Shown in pieces: positions 511-63,715 of a stretch of 64,000 nucleotides of DNA. Below the pieces are notes generated by a model. The model ran no database searches and was not told the DNA's origin. It saw only the letters and a program-made list of their open reading frames with translations. Made by a program: the position numbers and the translations under genes. The stretch is from Raja brachyura (taxonomy: Eukaryota), in the NCBI GenBank assembly GCA_963514005.1, contig OY740805.1, positions 31,496,001 to 31,560,000 on the forward strand, read 5' to 3'. Positions within the stretch are counted from its first letter, which is position 1. Each line of letters opens with the position of its first letter.

Positions 511-546
511 AATTAGAGCACATAAAAGAAGAGCTTGAGAAAACAG
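511..546 (+). CDS. Gene A micro-exon, 36 nt (ELEHIKEELEKT)
   Basis: tttctttcag|...|gtgaga. Confidence 0.88.
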
Positions 547-23300: not shown

Positions 23301-26300
23301 AAACAAACCAAATAACATGAACACATACCTTTAAAACACACTAAAAATATTTTTTGAAAACGACGAAAAGACAGACACACTGTTGGCGAGGCTCCCATGG
23401 ATGACGGCGCCACCCGGTGTACATAATGTATGCTATTGTGCTCTCCGTAGCATTATGACTATGTAGTAGTATGCTTAGGAGTTCAGAATTCCCAATTGCT
23501 TGGAAACTGTAACACAGTGAGGAAATGGGGTTATTGCAACAATTTAGCAAAGTGATCATTTTTCTGAGCAGATGAATAGTATGTTGGCGAAATGCTAATT
23601 TTCTGATCCTCTTAAAATATCTAGAAATTATTCTTATGTTGTTAATTTTAATTTCTGAATTCTGCTTATTTTTTGGAATCGATTCTTATCTGGGTCGTCG
23701 TACAGAATTATGGACAATTCTATTCCAATTTTGCTATAACATAACTCTTAATTTATGATGATAGAATTACGCCAGAAAAGTGAGACGATTACTTTCACGA
23801 GGCTCCATCCTAAATTTGAGATATAAGGTATTTTGCGCAGTCGTTGGAAGGCTAAAGATAGAGTAAGATCGTTTGTTTAGCTGGTGTACATTGTGCATTT
23901 TAGTTCAGAGCAAGAGAGCACGAACGACGCCATTACACATTATCATATGTAGGTGCATTGGTTAAATGTGTAACATTGGACTTTCATTATGCGCTCAATA
24001 ATTTAAAGATAAAACTCTTACCCCTCCTCAAAACAAGGTTTATTTTTCTCTGTTATTAATAAACAATATTTTCATTAACCCTCCTAAAGAAAACGGTATT
24101 ATCGAACAGATGCCATCAAAGACTCAGTTTCGTTATGACAGTTCGTTTTGCCTTTGTATCCAATATTAGTTCTGATTATATCGAATGTAAATTCGCTTTA
24201 CATTTTTGCAATGTGAGCATTGACAAATGCAAATTCGGTATCCAGGGTTCCATTCAATGGGTAGTACGACTATGGACTTTGGGCATACATTTCAAGTGTC
24301 ATGTCTGTGCATTACAGATATCGCAGACTTGGTGGACAGTTTAAAAAATGCAGGTAAGACGTAAAGGGTAACGTCACTAATGCGGGGAGGGAGATATTCA
24401 AATGTTACTAATACCTTCTTTATATGATTGTGTTTCTATGGTAGCATTTTCTCAAAGATGCGCATGTCCAAAAATCGTGATATAAGTAAAGTAAAAAGGG
24501 GAAAACATCCCCGCATATTGTCAACTAGCTACTAACGATGCCAAACGATTTTCTGGTTAGATATCATAAAACGGGTATTTTACCTATGAATGTTGAAACT
24601 AAATGCATACACTGTAGTCAACACTCTCGACAACGGGAAAGAAAATAAACATATTTGGAGGATTGCTGACATTTGTTCTCCCGCCTGCATTATTTTCTTT
24701 CAGAAGCCGTACTTAGCGAAAAGGAGGAAGGTGTGTTATTATGTGGACCGTAAAGACTACGGATGCTTCAATCTTGACCAAATAACGAACTACCAGAAGA
24801 TCTCAACGAGTCAGGCATCATCTGTAGAGGGAATCATTCTGATGAAGTGTCCGGGCCCTAACATTGGCAGTCTGAAGAATGATTCCGACCCAAAAAGTCG
24901 CCTATCTATTTCCTGATTACCTGTTTCCGCTGAGTTCCTCCTCCGCGCCTGACCACTTGAGTTATGTATGTTTTTGCTGAAGGTAAATTAATTCAAAGTT
25001 CACCAACTAAAGCAAATCCGGGCGAATAAAGCATCATGACAACATAAGAAAAAATCCTAACATTGCGATCCAACTGCCTCGGCGTTTGTTGTAGGATATC
25101 CGGTATACTGCAAATGGTATTTTCGGTCAGACAATATCAAAATCATTCACTGTTGTCACTGTCCAGATGTCAAGTACGAGCCACATCATTGGAGCCTACC
25201 AGGGAGAAGGAAAATCTGGATTTAGTGTTATGTAATGAACCGGATTTCACAAAGGACCTCGAGGTTAATGAGCCATTAGAAGGCAGTGACCATAACATGG
25301 CCAGGTCTAATCTACAATTGGAGAGGGAGAAGAGAAGATTGGAGATGTCATTGTTGCAGTTGAATAAAGGGGACTTCGGGCCATGAGGGAGGAGCTGGCC
25401 AAAGTTGACTGGCAGATACACTAGCTGGGATGACAGTGGAGCAAAAATGGCAGGTGTTTGTAGGAATAATACAGAAGGTGCAGGATCAGTTCATTTCTAG
25501 GAGGAAGAAAGATTCCAAGGGAAGAAAGGGACGACCATGGCTGTCAGGGGACGTCAAGTGCAGTATAAAGATTAAAGTGAAGAAGTACAACGTAGCAAAG
25601 ATGAGCATGTCCACAAATCGTGATAGAAGTAAAGTAATAAGGGGAAAACATCCCCGCATATCCCCCGAAAAAAGAGGATTGGGTAATGTTTCAAGAACAG
25701 AAGACAACCAAAAATACAATACGGGGAGAAAAGATGAGGTACGAAGGTAAGGTAGCCAAGAATAAAAAGCAGGATAGTAAAAGCTTCCTTAGGTATGTGA
25801 AGAGGAAGAAAATAGTTAAGACCAAAGTTGGATCCTTGTCTACCGAAAAATGTGAATTTATCATGGGGAACAAGGAAATGGCAGACGTTGAACAGGTACA
25901 TTGGATCTGTCTTCACTAAGGAAGACACGAACAATCTTCCCGATATAGTAGTGGTGAGAGGATCAGGGGTGAGAGAGGAACTGAAGCAAATCGAGATTAA
26001 GCAGGAAATGGTGTTGAATAGACTGATGGGACTGAAGGCTGATCAATCCCCAGGGCTTGATGGTCTGCATCCCAGGGTACTTAAGGAAGTGGCTCTGGAA
26101 ATCTTAGGAGATCAGAATTAGAAATACATCGATATATGCAATTCCAAACGAAATTCCGTTGCATTTGGCTCTGCGTGCAACGCAATAAGAAACAGAAGGA
26201 TAAAATGGATTAAAATATAAATTGGAACAAAAGATAAAATAGACAATGTTGGCAGCCCATTACATGGCATTCAGGAGTCTGTTGGCTCGTGGGAAGAAGC

Positions 26301-29300
26301 TGTTGCAAAACCTAGACGTTCTGCTCCTTATGCTACGATATCTTTTGCCCGAGGGCAGCAGAGTGAACAGTCTGCTGCCTGATTTGAGGGTAGCTAATGT
26401 TGTCCCACATTTTGAGAAAGGCGGGAAAGAGAAAACAGGGAATTATAGACCAGTTAGGCTGACATCGGTGGTGGGGAAGATGCTGGAGTCAATTGTAAAA
26501 GATGAGATAGCCGAACATTTGGATAGTAGTAACAGGATCGGTCCGAGTCAGCAGGGATTTACGAAGGAGAAATCATGCTTGACTAATCTTCTGGTATTTT
26601 TTGAAGATGTAACTTGGAAAATGGACAAGAGAGAGCCAGTGGATGTAGTGTACCTGGACTTTCAGAAAGCATTTAATAAGGTCCCACATAGGAGATTAGT
26701 GGGCAAAATTAGGGCACATGGTATTGGGGGGTAGAGTGCTGACATGGATAGAGAAGTGTTTGACAGACAGGAAACAAAGAGTAGGGATTAACGGGTCCCT
26801 TTCAGAATGGCAGGCAGTGACTAGTGGGGTACCACAATGCACGGTGCTGGGACCGCAGCTATTCACAATATACGTCAATGATTTGGCTGAAGGGATTCAA
26901 AGTAACATTAGCAAATTTTCAGATGACACAAAGCTGGGTGGCAGTTTGAACTGTGAGGAGGATACTATGAGGGTGACTTGGACAGGTTGGGGAAGTGGGC
27001 AGCCGCATGCTCGATTACTATCTAAATGGCGTCAAGTTGCGAAAATGGGAAGTACAACGGGATCTGGGGTGTCGTTGTACATCAGTCTATGAAAGTAAGG
27101 ATGCAGGTACAGCAGGCAGTGAAGAAAGCGAATGGCATGTTGGCCTTTATAACAAGAGGAATCGAATATAAGAGCAAAAAGGTCCTTCTGCAGTTGTACA
27201 GAGCACTGGTGAGACCACACGTGGAGTATTGTGTGCAGTTTTGGTCCACGAATTTGAGGAAGGACATTCTTGCTATTGAGGGAGTGCAGCGTATGTTTAC
27301 AAGGTTAATTCCCGGGAAGGCGGGACTGCCATATGCTGAGAGAATGGAGCAGCTGGGCCTGTACACCTTGGAGTTCAGAAGGATGAGAGGGGATCTTATT
27401 GAAACATATAAGATTGCTACGGGCTTGGATACGCTAGAGGCAGGAAACATGTTCCCGATGTTGGGGGAGTCCAGAACCAGGGGCCACACTTCGAAGGAGT
27501 GAGCCACTTCGAACGGAGTCGATGAAACACTTCACCTCACAGAGAGTGGTGAGTCTGTGGAATTCTCTGCCTAAGAGGGCGGTGGAGGTAGGTTCTCTGG
27601 ATGCTTTCAATAGAGAGCTAGATAGGGCTCTTAAAAATAGCGGTGTCAGGGCATATGGGGAGAAGGCAGGAACGCGGTACGGATTGGGAATGATCAGCCA
27701 TGATCACATTGAATTCCGGTGCTGGTTCGAATGGCCGAATGGCCTAGCGCTGCACTATTGTCTATTGTCTATTATCATGTTTGAAATTGGATATCCCGAC
27801 AGAACCTTGATATATCACTCTCACGTTTTATCTTAATGACTTGGATTATCCTATTGGCTATCCTTAATGAAATCATGGATTGACCTATTAAAATAACCCC
27901 CTCGACTTTTCGTCATGTGGTGGACAGTTTTGATATTTTCAGAATTCGGAGTTCTTTTTTAAATTGTAAAATGCAATACAAATCAATTATATCGGAAATA
28001 TGGGCCAGAATTCACAATTAAATCTATGCTCTGCGTTGCTGTATTTTATTCAGAATTGAAGAAAATTATTGAAGCACTGAAGCGGAAAGGTGACTAATCA
28101 CTAAATATCGTTTTTAGCATGACGTACGAAAAAGCATGACATCACGACAATCTATGCTTCAAAGAGAAACAGAATGATATAGTGTGGGAATAGGCTCTTG
28201 GGCCCAACTTGTTCACACCGGCCAACATGTCCCAGCTACATTAGGCCCACCTGCCAGTATTTAGTGCAGAACCTTCCAAACCTGTCATATCCATCTGCCT
28301 GTCTAACTGTTTCTTGAATGTTGCGATAATCCCTGCCTCATCCACCGCCTTTGGCAGCTTGTTCCATAGTCCCAACACACATTGTGTGAGGACATTTTCC
28401 CTCACATTCCTATTAAATCTTTCCCCCTCACCTCGAACCTATGTCCATCTGTCTCCGTAAGCTACAAGAGTTTGGAAATTAAAGACACATGATTAAAGAA
28501 TGGCCCTTCGGCCCAGTATGTGCGTGAGTGCCATTAATTATGCCATCCCCGCTTCTACAGGTCCCATCTTCTCGTGAAAAAAATCACCCTGATCTAGAAC
28601 TCCATAGGCACCGATTCCCAAATTATTTCCGGCCACATATTCGTCGGACCAAAGTGGAAGTATAAAGCAAGAAATGTGGAATCTGATAACTTGAATATAA
28701 ACCGAAAATGATGGAAGCATTCAGTAGCAAGACAGTATATATGGAATAGAAACAGATTTAACGTGTAATACCCAAAGCACCTTGGACCCAGGTGCTTATT
28801 ACTATTTTGATTGTTGTGCTTCTGTCAACAGAAAATACTTTCGGTCAGCAAGAAAAAGGTATCAATTCTAATACGTGCGGTCCTTGTTCCATAGGTTTTT
28901 GTTTGCTTAACTTGCTATTTCATCAACATCTGTCAAATCTGTGTTGGGATATCTGTCAAATATTTGTGTCTTATTTTCCATAAAACTGTTTCCACTGTTA
29001 TGCCTTTGTCGTTCCCTACAGGAAGTATGCAACACACTCCCTCTGCATCGTGAATTCTGTATTTTAGCTCAGATTCTCTGAATTACTTCTGGGAAACGGA
29101 CGAGAAGAAATATGCGCAAGGAAAAATGCAGACGGTGAACATGCTCCCGGAAGAGTAAATTAACAGAGACATGCTAACAATGAAGATGGTTTAACCATCA
29201 ATAGCTCTATAATCTGAGAGCCATTAATTTGTCATTTATGTCCATTATTTGCTCCGTGAGATAACAGTAAGACTTCATTCACGTAAATCTTCAAAAGGAA

Positions 29301-32300
29301 AGCAGAAACAATGAAGATACCCAAAGCAAAAGTTAGGAAAACGCAACCCATCCCACAAAAGCGTCCAATGGGCGAGATTGGTTATACCGACAGCAAATAA
29401 TGAAAGGTTAGCAATAAGTACTGACAATGTGTTACAAAATCTTGCTATAACCAAACCCCTGTTTTATGAGATTGAAAGGTTCACAGTCTCATGTCTAAAA
29501 TAAAATTAATTTCAGCTCAGGCATCTATTAGGTGATATTCTGTTTCAGTAAGAGTGTACAAAAGTGTTGACGTCTAAACGTCGCGCCAATAATCAATAAC
29601 CCCTTCATTGAGCACTCCATAATCATCCCACTCTGTTATTTGATGCGACTGGACCCTAATTACATCAAAACATCGTGAAAACCATTTCAATTAATCGTCA
29701 CTAAATTCGAGAAGAGAAAATACCACTGACACGCAGATATTCTGTAATTGAGACTACCTGCAGAAAATGAACCCAATATAATATATGTAAAAGTTGTCAT
29801 TTATTATCTGCCATTTGGTCAGGTGATCAGAGCACTCGATCGCGAATTCTTCCTTAGTATTGACGGAATTGTACTACCTAATTTTAGTATGGAGTTTGTT
29901 CAACAAGAGGAGCATTCGCCGTACCTGACGACATGCAACTTGCATGAACAAGTACTGAGTACAATAACAATTGTGCCTGTCATTTGATGATATTAAGAAC
30001 GACCTTCGAATTCATCTGGAGAGAAGGTATGCGGGTAGAGCGTGAACGTGACTGGTCTCAAAATTATGTTTACTTTCCAACCTTGCTACATGCAGGTGTA
30101 CCTGCCATGATTTCTAGTTGGCCATTTAACCTCAGAACAAAATGACATCAAGCAAGGCCGTGTTCTCGCTGCACATTTCTCCTCCACCTCATTGGCACTA
30201 TTAGTCACTTCCTGTTAACATCCATTCACATTTTCTTTCCTACTCTATCTCATACATATTTATTTTTCTGCTTCAGGGAGCGACACGACCGAACCTGGGA
30301 TTTCAGAAAAAGGTAGAGTCAAAATAAAATATCCAACTATGCTGATTAAGATAGCCCAATTATAAGGTAGTCTAATTTTGCAGGAAATTATACATGTAAT
30401 AGTTATCAATCAAGTTTATTTTCTTTCACGATAGGGCAATGCTGAACAGTTCTATTTTTTCAACCTGGACGCAACATTGTATCGAAATCCGCAGGAGAAA
30501 AAAAACATATTTTTAAAAATATTGTGTATTCTCGATTTATCCACACGAAATCCCCTCAACTGAAGATTTCACCTTCAATAAGCCACGGGTAAAATTAAGT
30601 CAAGACGCCTGCAATTAATTCCACTAAGGTGTAACTGTGTAAATTCGCTGTTGCTCCAACCAGGTAATTTTTTGGGATCAGTTCGACATTTTTATTCAAA
30701 ATTATATTCACGCATTAGCAGAAAACGGTGAGTTCCATCAAATATATTCTTCCAACGGTGTATTCCCTATTTTTTTTATTCTACACGGAGACTACCACCG
30801 ACTGACAATTATATATTAACATTGTTCAAGAATTGTACTCCAGGTGACTTGTAGATATCAATGTTACACTTGGCTTTGTACATCAGGACCATTTGATCTG
30901 CACCAAGACACACCGAATTTCAACGCTATGCCTTTTCGTTTTGACACCGACCGGTGGTGCAAATTGAAGCCCATTGTGCAGCTACCAAGTATCAACTATC
31001 GTATCAGGAATCAAAATAAAACATTCAACGATTTCTCAACCTCGAGCAATAACAATCGAAGATAAATTATCTTGCTCTTAGACGACTGCAAATCAATGCA
31101 AGTACATTAAAAATTGCAAATATACATGTATATTCGAATTCTGTTTTTACATTGCAGAAATCTCCATACTGGACGACAGCCTAAATAAAGCAGGTAAACT
31201 CTATCAAACATAATTCAAGGAAACTTGTAATTTGCCAGTGACAACGATAATAAGGAAACTATGTTGCGTTCTAAACCATTTGAGGCTTTAACTGTCGTAA
31301 GCAATACCTGTGCCATGAAAAATGTTAGCACTTTGTCGTTCCACCAATTGCAAGATTAATTCTGAACGTAATTTAAGACATGCGAAAGTTGGAGATTAAC
31401 TGCCAAGAGACGTTGCAGACCAATTCGCTTCCAGAAAAGCCAACAGATAACAATTCGCTCGCAACTCATTTTGGCATTTCCTCGAAGTTTTCATGTGGGC
31501 TTCATAACAAGCAAATGTATGGAGTATTTCAGGTCAGCCATGATTGGAGTATCTAATCTCGCTTCAACTACTGAACACATAATCTTTCCAATAGGATTAA
31601 CGTGTCATTCTGAAAAGAGGCAACAAATACATATATATTATTTTCTCCATCTTCATTAAAATAATTACTGTGGTAAATGAAGGGGCGTTCATTTTGATTG
31701 TAAAATAGAGGAAAAAGTGGAAAAAGCTAACTCCAGTATTGTGTTTGGTTTAATGCATTCTTTTTAAAAATCGTTTATTTTCAACGACACTAATTATCCA
31801 ATCTTATATTATTTCTTTGTAATTAGCGTTCAGTTTTACAAACTGTAACATTATAGTTTATTGTAAAGAATTTTGGCAGAAAAACGCAATGGACTGGAAT
31901 GTCTGCCTGTTCTGGAAATGTGAGCTCAGCCTTAAACCATCTAGGCACACGGTGCACCCCTAACCTTCTACGGTAGCGGGTTGTTCAAGAAGGTCAAACA
32001 AGAACACGTTCTGAAACGGGAAAATGAAAAGAAATAGCAAATATGTGTAACAAGCATCGAAATATCCAGTACAATATGGTTTTTTTTAAAGTAGCGTAAT
32101 AACTCCATTTTGATTGCACATTTTAAAATATCTACTTCTTTCAGAACGCCTGCTGCTGAAGAGAGAAACGGGTACGGCGATTAAATAAATTAAAGTTATC
32201 GTCAGCATATTGAGGAAGATCCGTAGTAAAGTGCGGCTAGACCACGCACACAACTATCTATCTATCTCTATCTAATTATCAATCTACCTATCTATCGACC

Positions 32301-35300
32301 NNNNNNNNNNNNNNNNNNNNNNNNNNNNNNNNNNNNNNNNNNNNNNNNNNNNNNNNNNNNNNNNNNNNNNNNNNNNNNNNNNNNNNNNNNNNNNNNNNNN
32401 NNNNNNNNNNNNNNNNNNNNNNNNNNNNNNNNNNNNNNNNNNNNNNNNNNNNNNNNNNNNNNNNNNNNNNNNNNNNNNNNNNNNNNNNNNNNNNNNNNNN
32501 NNNNNNNNNNNNNNNNNNNNNNNNNNNNNNNNNNNNNNNNNNNNNNNNNNNNNNNNNNNNNNNNNNNNNNNNNNNNNNNNNNNNNNNNNNNNNNNNNNNN
32601 NNNNNNNNNNNNNNNNNNNNNNNNNNNNNNNNNNNNNNNNNNNNNNNNNNNNNNNNNNNNNNNNNNNNNNNNNNNNNNNNNNNNNNNNNNNNNNNNNNNN
32701 NNNNNNNNNNNNNNNNNNNNNNNNNNNNNNNNNNNNNNNNNNNNNNNNNAACGTTTTTTTCATCAATCAAAAGATTCATTTCATGTCAAGTTATTTTCAA
32801 GACGCTCGCAAGAATGCATACGCAAATCCGGCACCGTTGTCCTCACATATTTGGGGTTTGCGGATACACTTGCAAATTCCAATAGTGAGAATATTTTTTA
32901 TCCGATTTTGAAATTATTTTATAAAGAAACAGATTAGATGCTAAATAGCTGAAAAGAACAGACATAGAAAGTGACACTATCACTGGGATGTCAACATTAT
33001 ATATAGTTGAGAATACATTTTTATTTGAAACGCTGAAAATCAATACTTTGTTTTCTTAAACAATTACGCACTTTTTTTAGAGGTTGCTATAATGACAGAC
33101 AGAAAATGGTGGAGTAATCAGGCAGTATTTATGGAGAAAAGGAGTGGGTGACCTTTCGGATCACGACCGATCTTCAGACTGTGATTCATGAGAGAGGGAA
33201 ACTAGAGGTATGAAAAGATACAGAACAAATCAGAGCCGGCACCGATGACAAAGGAAAGGTGGAGCCCATAATGTGCTATTGTTGGGTACTTTAAAATTTG
33301 TTTTGTTGACCTAATTATTTGGCGTTCAGTATGAATCACTGCTAGCCTATTTCGGCCCCTTTGTGCAGTGCATATGTAAAACTGCAGCAAATAATAATAA
33401 TAACAACTTAAATATATTAACGTAAATGTATTTGCGCTAAAATATCACATATTCTATAATCCCTCAACAGACAGTGAACTCATTGAGAAAGACACAGGTA
33501 AGATAACATCTTCTCCAGATTCGAATAATTCTCAAGAGATGAAACATTTCAAAGATGGCCAAATTCGCGGGACATATTATGGTGATTAGATGTGCTCTTG
33601 CGGTTATTGTATTAAATAGTGAAGGTCGCCTTTTACTTGGACAACTTTGATGGGAAACGGGTATAGGGGGTTTTAAAGCTCTGAGCAAACTATCAAAATC
33701 AGAAGTGAAATTGAGGTTGTAAGCATCGTTCAAATTTTTGCAAGCAATCTAAATGGTACTTTTCCATGGGCTGGCTGTTGGAAAATGACTTATTCCACAC
33801 AACTGCAAGTCAAACTCGGAAAAAGAGGCAGCGGAAGCTAATCTTCCTGATATTCCGTTGCAATATCACCGCAGAGTCCCCACCATTAACTTATTGAACG
33901 TCAGCATTGTCTTGCAAGTTAACTGATATAGCTGCGTAAAGGTCTTGGCATTGGAAGAGGTAGAAGTTGGGTATGCTCTGCCTAATATTTCGCTTCCTAA
34001 TAATTTCCTGCATCTACAAATTGAATGTACTTAAACGCATTCCATTTTTCTTACTGAAAACTGCCCATAAAACGACTCCAGCCAAAAACACAATCCTGGA
34101 AAAAGTAAACGGCCTGATTGACCACAAACTATCAATACAATACATTCATTTTCTCTAACGCTGTCGAACGGTGATCGCGATCCATATAACCTGAATTTTA
34201 TTTTGCCTCCTCTATTCCGGTAGCACCATATAAACACTTCACGCATCCGAGCTATTAATTCCGATGAATACTGCGATTGTTAATCCTTTTTAGTCAAATA
34301 TATCTATTTTGCTAAATACCTTATATCGTACAATGTAATGTTTATTCATTCGCAATGATATAACGATTGACACGTTTAACAATGAACAATATCATTCAAC
34401 GATTGGACGGGGATGCATGGGTTAAATTGAGGGCAATGGGTGAAATTCTAAATTGAACGTCAAATACTCTAGCTTTTTGCGTCCGTCTTCGATTTAAATC
34501 AGCATCTGCAGTTCCTTCCTGCATAAGAGTTACGCCACATTTTTGTGAAAACATCCGGAAGTATGTATGCCTTTGGAAAAACACCTGCCACAATCTCTGT
34601 GCTGAGAGTATCTATGAGACTTTCGCCAATTCACAGTAAAATACAACATTCTCGTTAATTGGGAATGTTATATTGCACCCACCTCATATCTACGTAGTTG
34701 CTGATCGTCAACCACGTTAATGTCGTGCAAATACATGTAATCTGGAGGAATCATGTAATCTGGAGGAAGGAACTGCAGATGCTGGTTCACACCGAAGATA
34801 GACACAAAATTCCCGAGTAACGCAGTGGGACAAGCAGCATCCCCGGAGAGAAGGAATGGGTGACGCTTTGGGTCGAGACCCTTCTTTAGACTGAGAGTCG
34901 GGGAGAGGGAAACTGGAGATATGGGAGGGTAAGGTGTGAAAACGACAGATAAAAGCAGACGCTGGTCAAGATGTGGAGGGTTCATTGTTGGCTGAGGCGA
35001 AACGGGTAACGAGGCATACAAACAGTAAAATGAATCAGGAAGACAGTGAAACTAGTCGGAGAACCAGGGTGGTCTGGAATGAGATCAAATGAAAGCAAGC
35101 ATTATTTGAAGTTAGATTTTTGGTGTTTCATTGCATTTGTTATCCGGCTGCGTTGGAAGCTGCCCATGCGAAATATGATGTGTTGGTCCTCCAAGCTGCG
35201 GTTCTCCTCACTATAACAGTGGAGCAGGCCCAGGGCAGGATGGTCAGAATGAAAATGGGGGAATTAAAGTGTTTAGCAAACTGGAGATCGCGTAGGCCTT

Positions 35301-53300: not shown

Positions 53301-56300
53301 ATTCACACCGCACTGAGCCACTTGGAACACCGGGAAAGCTACGTGGCGATGTTATTCATTGATTATCGCTCAGCATTCAATACTATAACTCCGGATATCA
53401 AACTGCTTGACCTAGGCCTCTCCTCCCCCATCTCCGCATGGATAAAAAACGTTCTCACAAAACCGCCCACAGAGAGTTAAACCCGGCCCCCACATCTCCT
53501 CCACCATCCTTTAAGCAGTGGCACACCTCAAGGCTGTGAGTTGAATCCACTCCTTTACTCCTTATACACCTGCCCACCCTTCCAACACGATTAATACATT
53601 TGCTGACGACACAACTGTCATCGGGCTGAACTCAGGGGGGGCGAGTCAGCATACAGGGACGAGATACAGTGACTGTCAGTGGTGTTCAGTAAATAACCTG
53701 AAACTGTACACCACAAAGGCAAAGGAGCTAATAACTTAACTTCAGGAGTAAACGGAACGCACACCCGGCCCCGCTCTGCATACATTGGACATGTGTGGAA
53801 AGGATGCAGACTTTCAAAATCCCAGGAGCCCACATATCCGACGGCCTCTCCTGGTCGGCCAACATCACTGCAACCGTCAAGAGAGCACAACAAAGACCCC
53901 ACTTCCTGAGAGTTATCAGCAGGCACAACACCAAGAAGGAGCTGTTGGTGGCCTTCTACCGGGCGACCATTGAAAGTCTACTGACATATTGCATGTTACT
54001 GTGGTATGCGGGCTGCTCTGCTGCAAATAAGAAAGCGCTCCAGAGAGTGGTAAAACATTAGAGAGAATCGCCGGCAACCAACTGCCCTTCGCTGGAGGAC
54101 ATTGCCACTTCACGCTACCTCAGCAGAGCCACTAAAATCACCAAGACTCCACACAACCTGGTCACCACCTTTTTGAACTGTTGCCCTCTGGCAGGTGTTA
54201 CAGGTCAACCAAAACACGCACTTTCAAACCCAGAGACAGTTTCTTCCCCAAAGCAATCTTCACACTCAATATGAAAAAACACTGAGTATTATTGATGCTG
54301 CACTCTTCCATGCTGCTACCCACCTTGCACTTTACTATCACCATGTGCAATACTGATTATTTACCTATCTTGACACCTAGTTTTTAACATTGTTTTTAAA
54401 TTGTGTCCTGTGTTGTTATGTTTGTATATTATGCACCAATGTGTGTCAATAATAATTTCGTTGTATGCAGTGCTTACAATGACAAATAAAGGCATTTAAT
54501 TTAAAAACATGGAATAGGCCATTCGGCCTTTCGAGCCTGCACCGCCATTCAATATGATCATGGCTGATCATCCAACTCAGTATCCTGTACCCGCCTTCTC
54601 TCCATACCCCCTGATCCCTTTAGCCACACATCTAACTCCCTCCATTTAAGAGCCAATGAACTGGCCTCAAGTACCGTGTGTGGCAGGGAATTCCATAGAT
54701 TCACCACTCTCTGTGTGAAAAATGATTTTCTCATCTCGGTCCAAAAATACTTCCCCCTTATCCTTAAACTGTGACCCCTTGTTCTGGACTTCCCCAACAT
54801 CTGAACAATCTTCCTGCATTCAGTTTGACCCTTCACTGGCAACAGAGATTTGCTTTAAATTGGAGTTGCGCTTGAATCTTGCCTTGCATGTATAAATAAC
54901 CTCCTTCCGTTGCTGATGAGATATCGCAGAAATGAGCTAATTAGTGTTCGCTGCCAATGTTCTATGGAAAGTCACGGCATTATTGTATCAACCAGCAGAA
55001 AAAACCGAAAAATCTTATTAATTTTTCTGTGAGCAAAGGTAAAATAAAGAAAAACACTGAATATGTTTTATATGGTTGATGGGTGCTGTCTTAACATTGT
55101 TTTAGAAACTGCTGTTACGAAGCACACAGTATCATTAAACACGTCAATAACGACGTAATGCTTCTATATTTCCCAACACTCTCTCTGTTCCCTTCCCTTC
55201 CGCAATATTTTCCATCTGCATATCTTACATAGCAGTTAGCACAAACATGTACTTGCCCGTAGGTGATTATTTTATCCTTTAGCTGGTACTAGGAAATAGT
55301 GAGCATATCGATCGAAATACTAATGTTTTATCATACAGCGGTGATCTGAGATCGCCTGCACGTTGCCGCAAAATATGTATTAATGGACTATATTCATATG
55401 ATGGAACATATTCATATAACGGAACATATTCATGTGTGTCACAGATGGATAGGGTAGTTAAGAACACTCGTGTTATGATTGCCTTCATAGGCTAAGGCAT
55501 TGATTGTCAATGTTTCTCCGCCTTGTTGCAGATGGACACAATATTGGTTAGACCGTACGGTTAGGTGTATCGTTGTGGTCTCGTTTATCGTTCGTTGCAA
55601 AAGGGACTCACAAGGATGTTGCCTCAAACTGAAGGCTGTAAATATGTGCAGAGACTGGATGGTCTTGGTGTATTCATATTGTATGATGGGGGGTTCAGGA
55701 GTGAATTTATAGATGTTTGTAGAGTTATGACTGGCATCAGTCGGCATCTTTTTGGTTGCACCAGTTCAGAGCTGTTCTGCATCTCGGAGAAAATGAAGAT
55801 ACAGCTCTCAGTGTGAAATATTCTGTATGTGTGGATCTAATTGTGTGTTGTCTGCACGTGAAAAGTCTACGCTTTGAAGATCTTATGGAAATTTGCAAGT
55901 TAACATCCAGCATTCGGACCCCGCTGGACTAAAACGTCTGTAATTCATTTTTAAAAGATGTTAACTCGAAATTTGTTTTTCAGAAAAAGATCAATTAAAT
56001 CAATTGCTCGATAAGGCCGGTTCGTTAAACTTAATTTTCAGATAGCCAGCCATCTTTACGCTTTGCTTCATTGATTTCAAGTATTTATCGGTTTGATGAA
56101 GTACGTCTATTCTGAAATCCCGTCGTATAGAATCACTTTATCCATTTAACGTAATCATGGCAAATGACTCCCTTCCGCATAAAGGAGAATGCATGTGGTT
56201 AAATCCTGAGCAAATATCAACATGCTGGAGGAAATCAGTGAATTAGGTTGCGCCTGTTTGGGGGAATGGACAGTTAACGCTTCGGTCGGGACCCCTCTGA

Positions 56301-59300
56301 GTCTCAAGAAACTCTCTCACCAATATCAATCATACTTTTATGAGTTTCTTACCCAAAAATCACTGCTCTTGATTCGACCGGACACGAAATGTCGCTTGTC
56401 TATGCCCTCCAGCTATGCTGCCTGTGCCGCAAGGTTACCCGAGCATTTGGTGTTGTCCGCTTTTTGTAATTCGTCTGGTATCATTTTTTGCTGTCAGCTG
56501 TTTGACGTCGTGTCTGTTTGCTGGATGTTCATAAGCCATTTGTCTTTTAACTTATTAAAAACTTTCCTTTATCTTAACAGAGCAAAAAATCGCCTTTCTA
56601 GAAGCAGGTAAACATTGTCAAAAATTAAATAAAACGATGTGATTTCATTTCTACAATCAGATTAACATGCATTCAATATATTCAAAGAAAAATGTGTTTA
56701 GCATTTTGGTGATGGTGGTAAAATGTGTTATAAGTGATAGTGATCAGCTTTGTTGCTGTTATTTTACGTTTCTTGCAGCCCAAGACAATAATATGGACAC
56801 CGGTGAGTCATATAACGAGTAATAGCGAGTGAATCCTGAACATATAACGAGTGGCTCGGGACTCTGAACATTAATATCCCTCCATCTGTTATTTGCACTT
56901 TATTAATTTATTAATTCATGGGTGTATTTATGTATAGAATTGTAGTCAATACCTTCTATGTCCTGTCGTGCTATGCAAAGAAAGATTTTCATTGTCCTGT
57001 CAAGGACACATGACAATAAACTCTTTTGACTTGACTTTTTTTGACTTTTGAACTCGAAATGAAATGATGCAGGCACTTGTAATTTCAGCTAAAATAACAA
57101 AATCCCTTCGCCAGAAGTTGGAACGAGCGAGAAAACAAGATGTGGAAGGAATGCTTGGGATAAATGAAATATCTCCGATTAAGTGAAGCTCATGAATGAT
57201 AGCAACGTTGCTGGACCCGATGGCGTTCTATATAAGAGGGAGGCGGAAAGTAAAATAAATTCAAAAGAGCAGCTGAAAAAAAACTGCCTATCGGCCTTTG
57301 GGATAATAAATAAAGCTTTGCATTTATCCTGGCCGTTGTTGGATGTTGCCAGGGTGTGTAAAATGCTACTACGTCACTGCGCCAGAGACCCGGGATCGAT
57401 CCTGACCGTGACTGCTGTATGGATACGGAGATTGTGCGTTTTCTTTGCTTGCAATAGGTTTGTTATAAGCACTTAATAAAGGGCTCACATGACCCAACTT
57501 TCTCGTCAGGTAGGAGGAGACAATGTAATTCAGTGTTATTCCCATTATACGTTCGTACCATTCTGGTAAAATAATATTGGATATGCCATCGTAAGCTCGT
57601 AATTTCTAATGTGATTGCATTTTAAGTGAGTGCTATATTTTGCAGATGATCGATTAGATGCAATCAGGGCAGGTAAATTAGTCCGTTAATTTGGATTGCT
57701 AATATGAAACCGCTATTGACATTTCACAGTTTCTGCGGTGTTTTAATTTAAATTTCGTGAGGTAAATAATAATTATTCTTTTCCCGTTAGAACTGCAAGC
57801 CCTCCGTGAATCTACAAGTGCGTATTCAACTATAAATCCTCAGTATTAGAAAAAATAATGTAATCATTCAAGATGTCGTTATGACTTGCATACTGTAAAT
57901 TAAGCCATTGCGCCTTTCGCATGCAGGTACTGTTGCCAATATTAAAAAAAATTACCACGTAGAGAAACTTGTATAACCCATAATAATGCAGCACCGTCTG
58001 TAGCAGTGGAGCTGCTACCCCACTACGCCAGAGACCCAGGTTCCATCCTTACCTCTAGTGTTGATTTGTTGTCCCTGTGACAGCGTGGCTTTCCTCTGGG
58101 TGCTCCGGATTCCTCCCACATTCCTAAGAAGTGCAGGTTAGAAGATTGGTTAGCTTCTGTGAATTTCACCGAAGGTGAGATAGCATAGCGCTGGTGTACG
58201 CGTGATCATAAAAACATGGAAACATAGGAAATAGGTACAATTCGGAGAAAATAGGTGCCAATAGGAATAGGACATATGGCCCTTTGAGCCTGCACCGCAA
58301 TTCTATATGATCATGGCTGATCATCCAACTCAGTATCCTGTACCTGCCTTCTCTCCATACCCCCTGATCCCTTTAGCCATAAGGGCCACATCTAACTCCC
58401 TCATAAATATAGCAAATGAACTGGCCTCAACTACATTCTGTGGCAGGGAATTCCACAGATTCACCACTGATATCGGTCCTAAAAGACCTCCCCCTTATCT
58501 TTCAACTAGGACCCCTTGTTCTGGACTTCCCCAACATCGGGAACAATCTTCCTGCATACAGCCTGTCCAACCCCTTAAGAATTTAGTAAGTTTCTATAAG
58601 ATCCTCCCTCAATCTTCTAAATTCTAGCGAGTACAAGCCGAGTCTATCCAGTCTTTCTTCATATGAAATTCCTGCCATCCCAGGAATCAGTCTGGCGAAC
58701 CTTCTCTGCAAGAATATCTTTCCTCAGATTAGGAGACCAAAGCTGTACGCAATACTCCAGGTGTGGTCTCACCAAGGCCACACTGCTGTACAACTGCTGT
58801 AGAACCTCCCTGTTCTTATACGCAAATCATTTTGCTATGAATGCTAACATACCATTCCCTTTCTTCACTGCCTGCTGCACTTGCATGCCCACTTTAAATT
58901 ACTGGTGTACCATGACACCCAGGTCTCGTTGCATCTCCCCTTTTCAAAATCGACCACCATTCAGATAATTCTACTTGCCTGGTCTTATCCATCAGAGTGG
59001 ATAACCTCACATATATCCACATTTACTGCATCTGCCATGCGTTTGCCAAATCACCCAACCTATACAAGTCACCCTGCAGCCCCATAGCATCCTCGTCACA
59101 GTTAATACTGCTCCCCACCTTCGTGTCATCCGCAAACCTGGAGTTGTTGCATTCAATTCCCTCGCCCAAATCATTAATAAATATTGTAAATAGCTGGAGT
59201 CCCAGCACTGAGCCTTGCGGTACCCCGCTAATCGATGGTCGGCGTACACTCGTCGGGAGAAGGGCCTATTCCCACGCTATATCACCAATCTACACTCAAC

Positions 59301-60791
59301 TGAATATGTAACCTGATTTTGAGAATGAAGAGACGATTTACGGAAGTAGAATCCGGCCACTGAAACAATTGACTTGTCTGGCTGGTGGTCAAAGCAAGAC
59401 CTTCCACCGATGTGGTTGATCATTACATTGAAAGGCTGTGACTCTTATGGGTACATTGCAGAGGAACTAATTACCAACATACGTACGTAAAAGAAAATAG
59501 GAAGAGATTAGTTATTTTAGATTAGTTCAACTGCCTTATTGCAAACATGAGATAACCTTTAACTACACTAGATTGAATGAAATCAGACCTAATTGAAAAG
59601 TCACTAAGGCAAATACAAAGGCAGAAGCAACTTATATCCGACTAAGCAAATTACAATCCCAGTTATTATACGACACATATAAGATTAAATATATGTCTAT
59701 ATGCGGAAGTCAATATATGTTTCGGTTTGAATAATACAATCTGTTAAACAGAAAACAGATATATCCCTGAGCTTAACTTACTTTAAGAAAAGTATACAAT
59801 AAGGTATTTATGGTAATTTTTGTTTGGCTTAGTTTGAATTTGGCTTACATTAATTCAGTTTAATGTAGTGTAGTTTAGAGATATAGCGCAGAAATAGGCC
59901 CTTCGGCCCACCGAGCCGGCACCAAACAAAGAATCCCGCACATTAACACTATCCCACACATACTCGGGACAATTTACACTTATAACAAGCGAATGAACCG
60001 ACAAACCTGGGCGTGTTTGGAGTATGGGAGCAAAACCGAAGATCTCGGAAAAAACTTACGAGGTCACGGGGAGAACATAGAGACAGCACCGTCGTCAGGA
60101 TAGAACCCAGGTCTCTGGCGCTGCAAGCGCTGTGACGCTGCAACTCTTCCGCACGCCACAGCACTGCCCTAAAATTAAATATATATATTTATATCTGAAA
60201 GAAAGCCACCCTTGTACATCAATCCAATTTCATCAATAACATCGCTTCCTGGACAGCAGTCAACCGGTGCAATCTTGGATGCAAAGGCCGTAAAATTGTA
60301 ATTTTCACAATAACATGCAGATCCGTAACCAACGTGACCATCTTTATAAGGAATACGTCGCATCTTAAAAGTGGGAGACGGTTTCCAAGTTCAGACAGCG
60401 ACGTAGAATGCGTGCTGCTTTCGAAACTAAGCGTTTTATTTCTAATAGTTTGCGCTGAGGTTAAAACATGTTAAAATTTAGTTCTGAGAATGTTTGCGAT
60501 TATTTTTCAGAGCAACAACTATTGACCAAAGAAAACGGTGTGTGTTTGGAAATTTAGATGGACATTGCGAAATTACATTTATCCTTAGAAAACACGGAGA
60601 TGCTGAAAATCTAATGTATGCGAACAAATCACATGAAAAAAAAATCCCGACAGACTCCACAGCACCTCTGGGAGGAGAAAAATGGATGACGTGTCATATG
60701 AAATACATAAGAGAGGAAAACATCCCTCGTCTTTCAATATTTCCATTGGCTCTTCTCCCACTCTCACACGCACGCACTAATTCATGCGCGT

Positions 60792-60877
<86 letters not shown>

Positions 60878-63715
60878 TTCCCTCCTTAATCTCTCACCAT
60901 GATGACTTATCGCTTAATCAACAGCCGACTTTTATTACATTCCTTCCGTCAGCCTTGCAATGGCGGGCTTGCTGGTCTCTCTCTCACAAAGTAGTTTCGA
61001 CCTAAATAGTCAATTCAATTTCTCTTCTCCTTACTTTCCTTTTATGAAAGTTCTGAAGTCTATTATTTCTCAATATTCCAGAAGCTAAGTAAACAATTTA
61101 AAATTAATTACCTACGAGTAAGTTGTTTATTGGAATTTGAAATTGGAAGGTGTTGCCATTTTCCTTTTATTCAAGTGTCAATGTGGAAGATTGAAAGGGT
61201 TCAAAGGTCGTTTATTGTCACGTGTACCAATTAATGTACGGTGATCGAATAAATGCGAGTAGTCGGCATACTGTTTTGAATTTGTAATGGCTGACCACAT
61301 ACATTACCTTAATTTTTAGAAATGAATACTATGCTACTTAGTCTGCAAGAAAAAGGTGAATGAATTGATTGAATGACAATTTAATCCCATCTAAACTTGT
61401 CGTTTGATTATATTGTGGTCCAAGAGACGGCGGATAGAAGTCTGCGCTTCGTATTTATGCCTAATTAGTGTGGACGACCAGGACAATTGGATGCGTCGCA
61501 GTTTCCAGAATGACAATGTACCATCAAACGATTTATGGTGAGCTACTAATACCGGTCAAGTTGATGGCTCAAAGATTGATCCCTGGTTGATTAAATTGTA
61601 AAATGTGCTGGATAACGAGTAACAACTGCAATGATTCCCGTGTAGTTAAATACAAAATAAAATATTTTAAAATGAATAAATAAAATAGTTTAAAAATACC
61701 TGTGATGAAACAATGTATTTACGTCAGAATGTACATTCTTGAAGAAATTGAAACTCAAATCTATCTCAGAGATAAGGAGATAAACCATTTATTTACATTT
61801 AAACCATTAATCAATGGCGGTGACGCATTCATCCGATTACCATCAATGATTATGGCATCTATAAATGTGACGAAGCATAGGAAACAACACTAAGATTAGC
61901 ACGCTTTGTTTTCCTCTTTCCATTCTTTAATGCACTCAATCGCACAGCGACAGGCATTTGCACTGCCATCGATCATCGATAACTGCAATATTCGTAGTTC
62001 CATTCACCGTGGAGGCCACAAACAACCTGAACCACAGGGTATATCCAGAAACGCCACTGTTATAACTGTGAATATATATAGAGGGTGAACAGCCTCGTGC
62101 AAAAAAAATAATTGTTCGCACGAAGTACAAGTCATTTTTGTATTTACTAGAACAAGGATGTTTACATGTTGCCGTTCATCACTTTAAATCTTGAGCGCTT
62201 TATACCCAATGTGGGCTGAACGTCACGCTGTCCGAACTGTCTCGAAAGATGAGGAGCACATTTATGGTGATTGGATTAGGAATGGGAAGTACGTGATATC
62301 CTAACTATGCTTATTTTGGTTTGAAAGATAACGTACTATCAATGAGAACTGCAGGTACGCTCACATCGTTCAGATTTTCGTTTGTATTTCTCACTTCACG
62401 ATGTTGAAACATACTGTATTCCACTGTTTTAAATTCCCTTTGGCATGTGCTGTTCATTCACCAACCTGTATGTGTTTATGTCTGTCTGTGTGTTTGTTTG
62501 TTTTTATCGATTGTTTTATTCTTTTGCAATAGCAGCAGTAATGAAGGATTGGAGATATGTGGGTTGTACGTGTCAACATTCGGGAGATATACAGAGCTTA
62601 AGTTCAGCAACTGCGAACAATCCTGAACATTTGTACTTACAGATTATTTTGTTTGCTGATCTTTTCTTTAAAATGCGTAATTATGTGATAACTCTCGGTA
62701 ATTCTCTGGAGCAAAGTAATTAAAACCCTTAAAACAAAGCAAACTGTAAAATATTGATGAAATGTGTTCTATGCACTCACAAAAGCAACACTAAAGACCC
62801 ATTTATTTATTTTTTCAATTCTGATGTTAAAGTCTCGTTGTATTACGATGGGATTTAACATCGACGCCAAACATTCTTTCAATCACTTTCAGGAAAGGCT
62901 TCAGCAACGGTGATATGCCAGTCAATTTAAATGCAATAGCACAGTAATGTAAATATATAGTACCCAGTGAAAATATATGTAACAATTTGCAGAACTTTGT
63001 GGAAGAAATATCAAACATGCTTACTTCCAGAACTAGAGAGAGTGAAAGACAATCTGCAAAATGCAGGTAAGGGTATATTTTTAAACTGTTAGGTATTAAC
63101 TCACCCTAACTTATTATTTCGGGTTTTGTAAAATATATCAGTCTTGAATAGTGATATAAGTAGAGTTTAAAATTCTTCTGGGTTGCTTACTGGAGTAAGC
63201 AAAGGCATAGGTCCGTACCTACTGGTCGGCACAGTTATAGCGTGCAAAATGAACAGTTTCTGGGCCTGTTTGATTTAATTGAGCCGAAGACTTATGACAA
63301 TCGAAATAGAGATGGAAAACTGGGTGATATTTAAATTAGTATTATCTACTTTTTTTTTAATACATTGACTGTACACACCGAAATTAGCACGAATTTTCTG
63401 AAGATCTGATTCTTACCGGTTTTTAGACTCACTTATCCAATCTAGTTTCTGAACAATAAACACAATACAACCAAAGTAACATAGATGGAAATAGTGGAAA
63501 TAGAAATGTAGTAGATTAGGATGGTGTATGAAAACAGCTCTAAGATCCGATAGCATATGTCAAAAATGAAATCGATTTTTGTAGATACCTTTCATCAGAA
63601 TCTCTAGCCGTTTCCCAAACAGGTGTTGTATTTTCCTTTTCAATATATTGTGTTTTGTTACATTCTATTTTACATTATTTAACTACAGAGGCGCAATTGG
63701 GAGACAAGGTTAAAG
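20268..63715 (+). CDS. Gene B (5' part, runs past window): putative secreted/anchored coiled-coil protein; leader exon, 117-nt exon and 32 micro-exons
   Basis: 34 predicted exons give one stop-free frame of 1153 nt (384 codons + 1). All junctions are phase 1 with canonical AG/GT. Hydrophobic N-terminus followed by heptad-patterned E/K/L-rich sequence. Confidence 0.82.
20870..21375 (-). mobile_element. CR1-like LINE 3' fragment
   Basis: [29 protein letters not shown]. Confidence 0.9.
21677..21793 (+). CDS. Gene B exon, 117 nt ([39 protein letters not shown])
   Basis: ttcatttctacaacag|...|gtaatt; 39 codons, open in phase 1, purine-rich. Confidence 0.78.
22640..23415 (-). mobile_element. Unclassified GC-rich interspersed repeat
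   Basis: Sharp composition shift and (atcata)n end; a partly similar stretch occurs at about 43290-43440. Confidence 0.45.
24318..24353 (+). CDS. Gene B micro-exon, 36 nt ([12 protein letters not shown])
   Basis: tgtgcattacag|...|gtaaga. Confidence 0.88.
24704..24730 (+). CDS. Gene B micro-exon, 27 nt (EAVLSEKEE)
   Basis: tattttctttcag|...|gtgtgt. Confidence 0.85.
25180..27775 (+). mobile_element. CR1/HER1-like LINE ORF2 (partial, frameshifted), with a nested insert at about 26104-26380
   Basis: [55 protein letters not shown]; insert is a minus-strand Rex/L2-type 3' end. Confidence 0.92.
28054..28089 (+). CDS. Gene B micro-exon, 36 nt ([12 protein letters not shown])
   Basis: gtattttattcag|...|gtgact. 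Confidence 0.85.
28180..28455 (-). mobile_element. CR1-like 3' end, degenerate
   Basis: Similar to 46540-46875 and to the reverse complement of 1-312. Confidence 0.65.
28832..28858 (+). CDS. Gene B micro-exon, 27 nt (ENTFGQQEK)
   Basis: gcttctgtcaacag|...|gtatca. Confidence 0.8.
30277..30312 (+). CDS. Gene B micro-exon, 36 nt, linker-like ([12 protein letters not shown])
   Basis: tatttttctgcttcag|...|gtagag. Confidence 0.7.
31158..31193 (+). CDS. Gene B micro-exon, 36 nt ([12 protein letters not shown])
   Basis: tttttacattgcag|...|gtaaac. Confidence 0.88.
32145..32171 (+). CDS. Gene B micro-exon, 27 nt (ERLLLKRET)
   Basis: tctacttctttcag|...|gtacgg. Confidence 0.82.
32301..32749. other. 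Assembly gap (449 N) following a (TCTA)n tract
   Basis: Run of N. Confidence 1.
33471..33497 (+). CDS. Gene B micro-exon, 27 nt (DSELIEKDT)
   Basis: ataatccctcaacag|...|gtaaga. Confidence 0.85.
34745..35340 (-). mobile_element. Penelope-like element 3' fragment
   Basis: Reverse complement resembles 5560-5990 (endonuclease end and tail). Confidence 0.75.
35774..35809 (+). CDS. Gene B micro-exon, 36 nt ([12 protein letters not shown])
   Basis: ttggttttatcag|...|gtgagg. Confidence 0.87.
36144..36170 (+). CDS. Gene B micro-exon, 27 nt (EKSRRDQEN)
   Basis: ttttctcttgaag|...|gtaagt. Confidence 0.82.
37399..38235 (-). mobile_element. Rex/Babar-like LINE 3' fragment with (TTCA)n tail
   Basis: [26 protein letters not shown]; closely similar to 53680-54500. 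Confidence 0.88.
39096..39131 (+). CDS. Gene B micro-exon, 36 nt ([12 protein letters not shown])
   Basis: gtttcctttccag|...|gtgaga. Confidence 0.88.
40947..40973 (+). CDS. Gene B micro-exon, 27 nt (EDTCNEKER)
   Basis: tccctcatttag|...|gtatgt. Confidence 0.85.
41095..41130 (+). CDS. Gene B micro-exon, 36 nt ([12 protein letters not shown])
   Basis: ttttatttctcag|...|gtgagt. Confidence 0.88.
41456..41482 (+). CDS. Gene B micro-exon, 27 nt (QESLKQRDK)
   Basis: tttttgcacaatag|...|gtaaac. Confidence 0.82.
42713..42748 (+). CDS. Gene B micro-exon, 36 nt ([12 protein letters not shown])
   Basis: cactatttacag|...|gtaaga. Confidence 0.78.
45299..45322 (+). CDS. Gene B micro-exon, 24 nt (VNKVAQVK)
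   Basis: tttctttcttgcag|...|gtagta. Confidence 0.7.
46160..46505 (+). mobile_element. Rex/Babar-like 3' fragment, degenerate
   Basis: ctcccatcaggccgcaggtat..cagattcagggacagtttctt; same type as 6770-7237. Confidence 0.6.
46540..46875 (-). mobile_element. CR1-like 3' end
   Basis: ccagcctcaactacctcc..ccatacacccaccacc..gtgtgaaaaag. Confidence 0.75.
47029..47055 (+). CDS. Gene B micro-exon, 27 nt (DLEKVRGNL)
   Basis: ctgtttactttag|...|gtatgc. Confidence 0.84.
   Translation: MWRKFVEI
47628..48060 (-). mobile_element. Penelope-like element 3' fragment
   Basis: [24 protein letters not shown] plus terminal repeat; homologous to 5560-5990. Confidence 0.85.
48150..48176 (+). CDS. Gene B micro-exon, 27 nt (EDQLKEKSN)
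   Basis: tcttggtttgagcag|...|gtaggc. Confidence 0.84.
48971..48994 (+). CDS. Gene B micro-exon, 24 nt (ELTKFQEK)
   Basis: tttacctttccag|...|gtaaat. Confidence 0.82.
50223..50249 (+). CDS. Gene B micro-exon, 27 nt (ENQMFEKQR)
   Basis: ttattttgattacag|...|gtaata. Confidence 0.84.
51233..51259 (+). CDS. Gene B micro-exon, 27 nt (EMESLIKIS)
   Basis: tttccttgacag|...|gttcgt. Confidence 0.8.
51921..52208. mobile_element. MITE with long terminal inverted repeats (Harbinger-like ends)
   Basis: gcccctgtcccacttaggaaac..gcggttcccggagg versus cctccgggaaccgc..gtttcctaagtgggaccagggc; about 80-nt imperfect TIRs. Confidence 0.8.
52755..52781 (+). CDS. Gene B micro-exon, 27 nt (EKENELKER)
   Basis: cttccttatttcag|...|gtagtg. 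Confidence 0.82.
53040..54500 (+). mobile_element. Rex/Babar-like LINE RT and 3' end, frameshifted
   Basis: [37 protein letters not shown] motifs. Confidence 0.9.
54507..54830 (-). mobile_element. CR1-like 3' fragment
   Basis: [25 protein letters not shown]. Confidence 0.88.
55984..56019 (+). CDS. Gene B micro-exon, 36 nt ([12 protein letters not shown])
   Basis: atttgtttttcag|...|gttcgt. Confidence 0.84.
56581..56607 (+). CDS. Gene B micro-exon, 27 nt (EQKIAFLEA)
   Basis: cctttatcttaacag|...|gtaaac. Confidence 0.86.
56779..56802 (+). CDS. Gene B micro-exon, 24 nt (AQDNNMDT)
   Basis: cgtttcttgcag|...|gtgagt. Confidence 0.8.
57646..57672 (+). CDS. Gene B micro-exon, 27 nt (DDRLDAIRA)
   Basis: ctatattttgcag|...|gtaaat. 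Confidence 0.84.
57791..57817 (+). CDS. Gene B micro-exon, 27 nt (ELQALREST)
   Basis: ttcttttcccgttag|...|gtgcgt. Confidence 0.8.
57985..58205 (+). mobile_element. HE1-like tRNA-derived SINE, degenerate
   Basis: cgccagagacccaggttccatcct (B-box-like); ctccggattcctcccacattcc core; related fragment at about 57360-57450. Confidence 0.65.
58210..59230 (-). mobile_element. CR1-like LINE 3' fragment
   Basis: [25 protein letters not shown]; 3' end matches 54507-54830. Confidence 0.9.
59860..60170 (-). mobile_element. HE1-like tRNA-derived SINE
   Basis: gtcaggatagaacccaggtctctggcgctg head; CR1-type ggcccttcggccc 3' tail. Confidence 0.75.
60511..60537 (+). CDS. Gene B micro-exon, 27 nt (KQQLLTKEN)
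   Basis: attatttttcag|...|gtgtgt. Confidence 0.82.
60793..60874. repeat. (CA)n microsatellite
   Basis: Near-perfect dinucleotide run. Confidence 0.95.
61320..61355 (+). CDS. Gene B micro-exon, 36 nt ([12 protein letters not shown])
   Basis: ccttaatttttag|...|gtgaat. Confidence 0.84.
62328..62354 (+). CDS. Gene B micro-exon, 27 nt (DNVLSMRTA)
   Basis: ttttggtttgaaag|...|gtacgc. Confidence 0.75.
63031..63066 (+). CDS. Gene B micro-exon, 36 nt ([12 protein letters not shown])
   Basis: gcttacttccag|...|gtaagg. Confidence 0.9.
63689..63715 (+). CDS. Gene B micro-exon, 27 nt (EAQLGDKVK)
   Basis: ttatttaactacag|...|gtaagc. Confidence 0.86.

Follow-up and report, generated by a model that had tools for sequence, protein, structure and literature searches.

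The stretch analyzed here (the window) comprises 64,000 nucleotides of the + strand of Raja brachyura contig OY740805.1 (C25 in the analysis; positions 31496001-31560000) in a genome of 2.7 Gb; sites beyond it are given as offsets counted from its start. The window contains an array of microexons sharing one layout, in which AG is followed by two bases completing a split codon, a series of whole codons, one base, and GT. Because the exons are in phase 1-1, the first residue of each is the junction codon. The array was scanned for first with a splice-site and composition model seeded with 30 window exons and holding no positional amino-acid information, and then with a refined model that adds position profiles, is circular with respect to motifs, and was applied to the window at a score threshold of ≥14. 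The seed model identified the array on the + strand of the window and a single match on the − strand. In the refined scan, 38 phase 1-1 microexons with scores of ≥14 were present on the + strand (8 at 0 to 7 kb and 30 at 24 to 64 kb) versus 1 on the − strand. Across 1.264 Mb, from −800 to +464 kb, the composition-only scan detected 401 exons on the + strand versus 31 on the − strand, and the refined scan detected 429 versus 19 in the same ~1.26 Mb. A repeat-derived 24-nt pseudo-exon occurred on both strands, and 4 such rows were removed before the classes were counted (429 to 425). The strand bias is not a chance effect. The array ends near +468 kb, is still present at −858 kb, and is split by gaps of 15 to 65 kb into blocks Z, A, B, C, D, and E, with the end of block C and the start of block D in the window. 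The initial annotation had described a single gene grown by tandem duplication; tandem growth stands, but the array is a cluster of genes that extends far past both window ends.

The leftmost eight microexons, all on the + strand, likely represent the 3′ end of an upstream gene, C (511-6710). In the refined scan, they are located at 511-546 (A), 881-907 (B), 1031-1057 (a), 1852-1878 (B), 2399-2434 (A), 3649-3675 (B), 4245-4271 (a), and 6687-6710 (24 nt), where A denotes a 36-nt class, B a 27-nt class, and a a second 27-nt class of the L-R-x-x-L/F type. Two unconfirmed candidates for the terminal exon follow on the same strand, one at 8836 with a stop at 8868-8870 and one at 9066 with a stop at 9074-9076. 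Upstream of the window, joining the predicted gene C exons at −80837 and −78565 yields a stop, which may mean that an intervening exon was missed or that the gene is truly truncated.

A 117-nt, phase 1-1 exon at 21677-21793 (+), with an ATG at 21679, is the likely first coding exon of a second gene, D. It is charged and not coiled-coil, is single-copy in the genome, and gave no match in a search among proteins of 71 to 2000 aa; a homologue, P0006, is 79% identical to it and has the same donor end. No convincing hydrophobic start or signal-peptide exon was found ahead of it in the interval from 9 to 21.8 kb. A 50-nt stretch at 17878-17927 has a good acceptor and donor, lacks an ATG, and is a possible 5′ untranslated exon of gene D. 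An apparent look-alike of exon 21677-21793, with an ATG at +303.7 kb before gene E, was rejected, as it gave no BLASTP alignment and a score of 4 among 1158 frames.

The gene D microexons follow on the + strand at 24318-24353 (A), 24704-24730 (B), 28054-28089 (A), 28832-28858 (B), 31158-31193 (A), 32145-32171 (B), 33471-33497 (B), 35774-35809 (A), 36144-36170 (B), 39096-39131 (A), 40947-40973 (B), 41095-41130 (A), and 41456-41482 (B). The alignment with a duplicate gene, A, begins at the next exon, 44225-44251 (a), which is followed by 45299-45322 (24 nt), 47029-47055 (27 nt, with a borderline score of 13.9), 48150-48176 (B), 48971-48994 (24 nt), 50223-50249 (B), 51233-51259 (a), and 52755-52781 (B), whose gene A counterpart is missing both splice sites and contains a stop. 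The remaining window exons are located at 55984-56019 (A), 56581-56607 (B), 56779-56802 (24 nt), 57646-57672 (B), 57791-57817 (a), 60511-60537 (B), 61320-61355 (A), 62328-62354 (B), 63031-63066 (A), and 63689-63715 (B), and the gene runs ~200 kb past the window. A weak 27-nt candidate at 35971 (score 13.7), which would interrupt the series of exons at 35774-41482, was treated as false. The intron at 24730-28054 holds a decayed LINE with reverse-transcriptase frames (25300-27750), within which Pfam RVT_1 was matched at 26243-26731 (E = 1.5e-12). At the 3′ end, genes D and A each have short acidic exons and then a conserved terminal exon with a stop, 3′ of which 686 bases align at 73% identity. 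Two queries (E ≤ 0.05) gave no B30.2 match after gene D as far as +664 kb.

C and D are probably two genes. The competing reading, to which we assign a lesser but appreciable weight, places the window inside one giant gene (C and D, perhaps with more of the array) and makes exon 21677-21793 an internal linker. This exon could be internal because it is 117 nt long and in phase 1-1; the gap is just ~15 kb, and in D the module that ends other genes has more exons after it. However, the last exons of gene C are collinear with the terminal modules of A, D, and E, and the candidate terminal exon at 9066 combines a strong acceptor and an immediate stop with AATAAA motifs ~1.1 and 1.3 kb past it. The Met at 21679 is kept in P0006, and D and A each possess a terminal exon of their own.

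Across the array, 113 of the 425 exons are 36 nt long (class A), and an unsupervised two-class mixture applied to the 245 27-nt exons assigned 170 to class B, with the consensus E-x-x-L-R-x-K-[DE]-x, and 75 to class a, which reads E-L-x-x-L and is a truncated A. The 414 exons with scores of ≥15 include 240 of 27 nt, 113 of 36 nt, 36 of 24 nt, and 10 of 21 nt. Class B alternates with other exons in 0.696 of steps, compared to 0.481 ± 0.023 after shuffling, and none of 5000 shuffles reached the observed value. The exons therefore cluster by sequence into two alternating types, as the initial annotation had proposed: the mixture separates two 27-nt classes, and B alternates with A or truncated A. 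The strict 36/27 alternation described for 24318-28858, 35774-41482, and 61320-63715 was recovered in all three runs, the first of which extends by a further pair (31158, 36 nt; 32145, 27 nt). The sole B-B step in the window (32145/33471) borders a run of N, which precludes scoring it. Overall, the coordinates and the alternation hold, on a scale far larger than the window.

The predicted core positions were recovered in part. In the 36-nt exons at 24 to 64 kb, said to have core sites at positions 2, 5, 9, and 12, L/I/V/M/F occupies positions 5 and 9 in 9/9 exons and position 2 in 8/9, but the Ala expected at position 12 is present in just 5/9. The composition-only scan, by which 107 exons could be assessed, gave the same pattern as the refined scan, with hydrophobic fractions of 0.81, 0.88, and 0.65 at positions 2, 5, and 9. 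In the 27-nt exons, for which core sites at positions 4 and 7 had been proposed, 12 of the 15 class B exons are hydrophobic at position 4, but position 7 is K/R in 11/15; this site is polar because Lys occupies it.

Joined A+B pairs form 21-residue units (83 cases), a+B pairs form 18-residue units (40 cases), and 24-nt+B pairs form 17-residue units (13 cases). The A+B profile (83 pairs) is hydrophobic at positions 2 (0.78), 5 (0.92), 9 (0.61), 12 (0.45, besides Ala in 20/83), and 16 (0.93), whereas position 19 is Lys in 62/83 pairs. The description of the pair as three heptads with 3-4-3-4-3-4 spacing is thus borne out for five core sites (2, 5, 9, 12, and 16), the sixth being Lys rather than hydrophobic. 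From the profile, the core can be read as a-d-a-d-a-d with Lys at d; a literature search on Lys-at-d layers found no confirming paper. With Lys at its sixth core site and frequent Ala at position 12, the rod may be marginally stable. The a+B units have their core at positions 2, 5/6, and 13, with Lys at 16, and fit an 18/5 stutter (7+7+4). Periods of 21 and 18 residues are those that coiled coils accept easily, according to the accessible part of PMC4786415. The 27+27 pairs, which had been thought to disrupt the register, do occur as 18-residue units, but they consist of truncated A plus B and would form a stutter rather than a break. The 24+27 pairs also occur, as 17-residue units; these are mostly acidic and Gly-bearing and are therefore likely hinges, not stammers. 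Most 24-nt exons are acidic linkers.

When 128 gene D exons were joined in genomic order, the 1,217 resulting residues contained 0 stops, 0.2% Pro, and 1.8% Gly. Hydrophobicity peaked at a period of 3.50, and 0/200 exon shuffles reached the peak; the 32 exons of the window likewise gave a period of 3.50 (0/200 shuffles), and the run at 24318-41482 was by itself not significant (26/200). The junction codons of gene D are Glu in 80/125 and Asp in 16/125, and in this register these residues would occupy g and e of the heptad.

Block A is a collinear duplicate of D, aligning from window position 44184 to +269 kb. In a comparison of splice sites, 78 of 113 D exons were mapped, and among these the length was kept in 77/78, the acceptor AG in 77/78, and the donor GT/GC in 75/78, whereas intronic control sites kept AG in 1978/3535 (56%) and GT in 1807/3464 (52%). 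Three gene A exon copies lack a splice site, and two of these contain stops. The dN/dS ratio between D and A is 0.47 (bootstrap range, 0.37 to 0.61; 649 codons), a merely moderate value. In the 36-nt exons, 17/18 (94%) of the residues compared at positions 5 and 9 are identical, versus 50 to 78% at other positions. By these measures of sequence divergence, the exons are under purifying selection. DNA contigs from three runs over 34 to 53 kb differ by ~1 to 1.5%, too few differences for power.

The initial annotation attributed the array to tandem duplication of a two-exon module, long ago, with no similarity left among introns. A repeat-masked comparison of the window with itself confirmed that no similarity between modules remains, apart from one 53-bp non-exonic match, and the expansion there is therefore old. 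In paralogues, the duplication is directly visible. Gene E contains at least 6 27+36 units at +404 to +424 kb with introns 64 to 83% alike, and a paralogue at C25:29.65 Mb contains three tandem 27+36 units that are 80% alike over 1,789 bases. Further duplications comprise a 27+36 pair in A and longer blocks of 8 exons in C and 5 exons in Z; whole genes have been duplicated as well. Matching of D with A paired 91 exons, from 126 and 111 candidates, and revealed two clear gains, both of them exact 27+36 pairs. Exons were lost singly (27 nt) or in runs whose length is not divisible by seven, so that the register is respected by gains but not by losses.

These gains and losses bear on whether the register has been selected. 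With symmetric phase, the gain or loss of any exon would leave the frame intact, and selection acting on the protein would then retain mainly pairs that add three heptads. Alternatively, the alternation could be a trace of duplication history, in which unequal crossing-over spread frame-neutral pairs and the register was inherited, not selected. The loss of single 27-nt exons from gene A and the skipping of single units in annotated isoforms of a relative in Narcine bancroftii are as this alternative would have it, and the test sample is 2 gains. The gene A losses and the Narcine isoforms, which drop units of 6 or 9 residues, break the register and count against selection on it. We nonetheless regard inheritance of the register as improbable, as conservation between D and A peaks at core positions 5 and 9, each of the two gains adds a 21-residue pair, and the common units have the lengths that coiled coils accept easily (PMC4786415, accessible part). 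Selection on the register remains the preferred account of the alternation.

The relatives of gene D were sought within and beyond the array. The last exon of block B, at −169.5 kb, encodes a B30.2/SPRY domain (Pfam SPRY, E = 6e-12), for which the best solved structure by sequence is BTN3A1 (E = 1.2e-24), followed by TRIM58 (1.1e-19) and pyrin (5e-18). It matches one named cluster, the Narcine RefSeq proteins XP_069775384-90 (353 to 378 aa), which consist of a coiled coil and a B30.2 domain without a signal, Ig, membrane, RING, or B-box part. The rod of XP_069775384 maps exon by exon onto block B, and a two-codon start exon like that of the Narcine protein is present at −261.6 kb; a start at the Met shortly past the acceptor at −260.9 kb was ruled out by this upstream exon. 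Thus, the Narcine proteins are the likely orthologues of gene B by sequence comparison. Their annotated isoforms variously lack a unit of 6 residues, a unit of 9 residues (equal to one exon of gene B), or two units of 8 residues at the N terminus. A/B microexons also precede each of four further B30.2 exons of the subfamily (one at C25:29.61 Mb and three on C24), and the window contig contains many B30.2 exons besides. On C24, three microexon-plus-B30.2 genes with the same A/B classes were observed at 15.71-15.82 Mb and 17.57-17.85 Mb; a protein search with a C24 B30.2 exon returned nothing at E ≤ 1e-5.

The order of exons is common to C, A, D, and E (scores of 10.9 to 193.5 versus 3.5 to 6.9 for shuffled lists), and the order in gene B resembles these weakly (3.2 to 5.8 versus 2.3 to 3.5), with scores of 5.8 against D and 4.9 against A compared to ~3.5 when shuffled. 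The putative link of gene D to the B30.2 genes rests on common exon classes, module order, and adjacency. Five gaps in the array contain 382 frames, and the 150 of 155 non-repeat frames of at least 80 aa that were searched gave 0 matches to Ig, RING, or B-box families. An Ig motif scan over 1.46 Mb found nothing convincing, a V-set search in which 150 of 1128 candidates were scored placed none near the array, and no B30.2, Ig, RING, or membrane exon was found for gene D. The sole RING frame, 58 kb past the array (+526 kb), belongs to a separate single-exon type with a C-terminal hydrophobic segment, which we take to resemble RNF183/RNF186. Broken frames at −162 kb beside a long CA/GT repeat gave no Pfam match and presumably recall a ZFP36-like CCCH gene, and frames at −190 kb we assume to resemble a DIRS-type retroelement (RT, RNase H, and recombinase). 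MHC class I exons are located on the window contig at 18.1 to 24.1 Mb (7/12 matches); a search for MHC class II gave no match and was uninformative. No description of this family was found in a literature search with thin coverage of subscription journals. The accessible parts of PMC12841164, on butyrophilins in cartilaginous fish, contain nothing like this array, and the 'A33-like' protein reported from catshark mucus (PMC10707392, accessible part) cannot be tied to this family.

Taken together, we consider it probable that the window holds the start of a soluble coiled-coil rod of ~1,250 residues (predicted gene D), a member of a tandem family whose prototype rod ends in a butyrophilin-like B30.2 domain. 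In such a rod, the 18-residue truncated-A+B units would act as stutters and the acidic 21/24-nt exons as hinges. Dimeric coiled coils have Ile/Leu at a and Leu at d, and because the rods do too, they would be dimeric. Such dimers, if cytoplasmic, could space or scaffold B30.2 ligand-binding heads. Gene D, which would have lost the B30.2 head, might serve as a rod-only partner or a cytoskeletal binder, by analogy with the tail of chicken BG.

The rods might instead be structural or secreted fiber proteins with a function unrelated to immunity, in favor of which D, A, C, and E lack B30.2. We think this improbable as well, given that no signal-peptide exon was found and that the Narcine relative is without one; a cytoplasmic structural role may overlap with the soluble-rod reading. 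Least credible is that the microexons encode the cytoplasmic tail of a membrane-bound butyrophilin/BG-type receptor with signal, Ig, and membrane exons upstream: the B30.2 of the neighboring gene B is closest to BTN3A1, MHC class I exons share the contig, and the tails of chicken BG consist of 21/24-nt exons (PMC4046983, accessible part), but the 150 gap frames searched and the motif scan over 1.46 Mb yielded no convincing Ig, RING, or B-box sequence, no hydrophobic start exon was found ahead of 21677, and the Narcine orthologue of gene B begins directly in coiled coil.

A broader proposal can be entertained, although we hold it as speculative. Under it, the MHC chromosome of rays would carry a family, not yet described and spanning megabases, of soluble rod-B30.2 sensors derived from butyrophilins, with the two-exon, three-heptad cassette as its evolutionary unit and microexon splicing as the determinant of rod length and register. 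In this family, gene D and other giant headless rods would pair with headed paralogues as spacers or decoys, and the design would be convergent with chicken BG tails through a different exon code. More than 400 microexons in ~1.3 Mb, together with gene duplicates and recent pair duplications, constitute a natural experiment on whether register constrains exon shuffling, one that can be read by tallying gained and lost exons over ray genomes. The array further suggests that a butyrophilin-related family of cartilaginous fish has been overlooked, its members being named in automatic annotation by stray BLAST match.

Among known systems, the soluble coiled coil and B30.2 of TRIM58, TRIM21, and pyrin resemble gene B, but no RING or B-box was found in the array, and TRIM B30.2 domains score below BTN3. 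Enterophilins are mammalian soluble proteins with a long leucine zipper and a B30.2 domain, and the overall layout of gene B is presumably the same. BTN3A1, the closest solved B30.2, resembles gene B in having heptad repeats before the B30.2 domain and a location on the MHC chromosome. Butyrophilins possess IgV, IgC, and a membrane segment and few heptads, according to the accessible parts of PMC4046983 and PMC12841164, whereas none of these Ig or membrane domains, and no B30.2, was found for gene D. The Narcine proteins XP_069775384-90 share with gene B 64% identity in B30.2, collinear microexons, and the same two-codon start; their name, 'zinc-binding protein A33-like', is automatic, and their rod is ~205 residues long, whereas that of gene D is about six times longer and without B30.2. 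The accessible part of PMC4046983 describes the chicken BG genes, together with the zipper protein, as, like the array, a tandem same-strand cluster near the MHC encoding a long predicted coiled coil from many tiny exons, with copy number shifting by recombination and a soluble tail form. Unlike the array, BG as described there has IgV and a membrane segment, no B30.2, and 13 to 36 exons that measure 21 or 24 nt and each encode one heptad. The array uses the 36+27-nt pair as its unit, has up to ~128 exons per gene, and has no Ig or membrane exon that could be found. The array thus falls outside BTN, BG, and TRIM alike and, with its function inferred, likely represents a new soluble variant of the butyrophilin/BG heptad-exon design.
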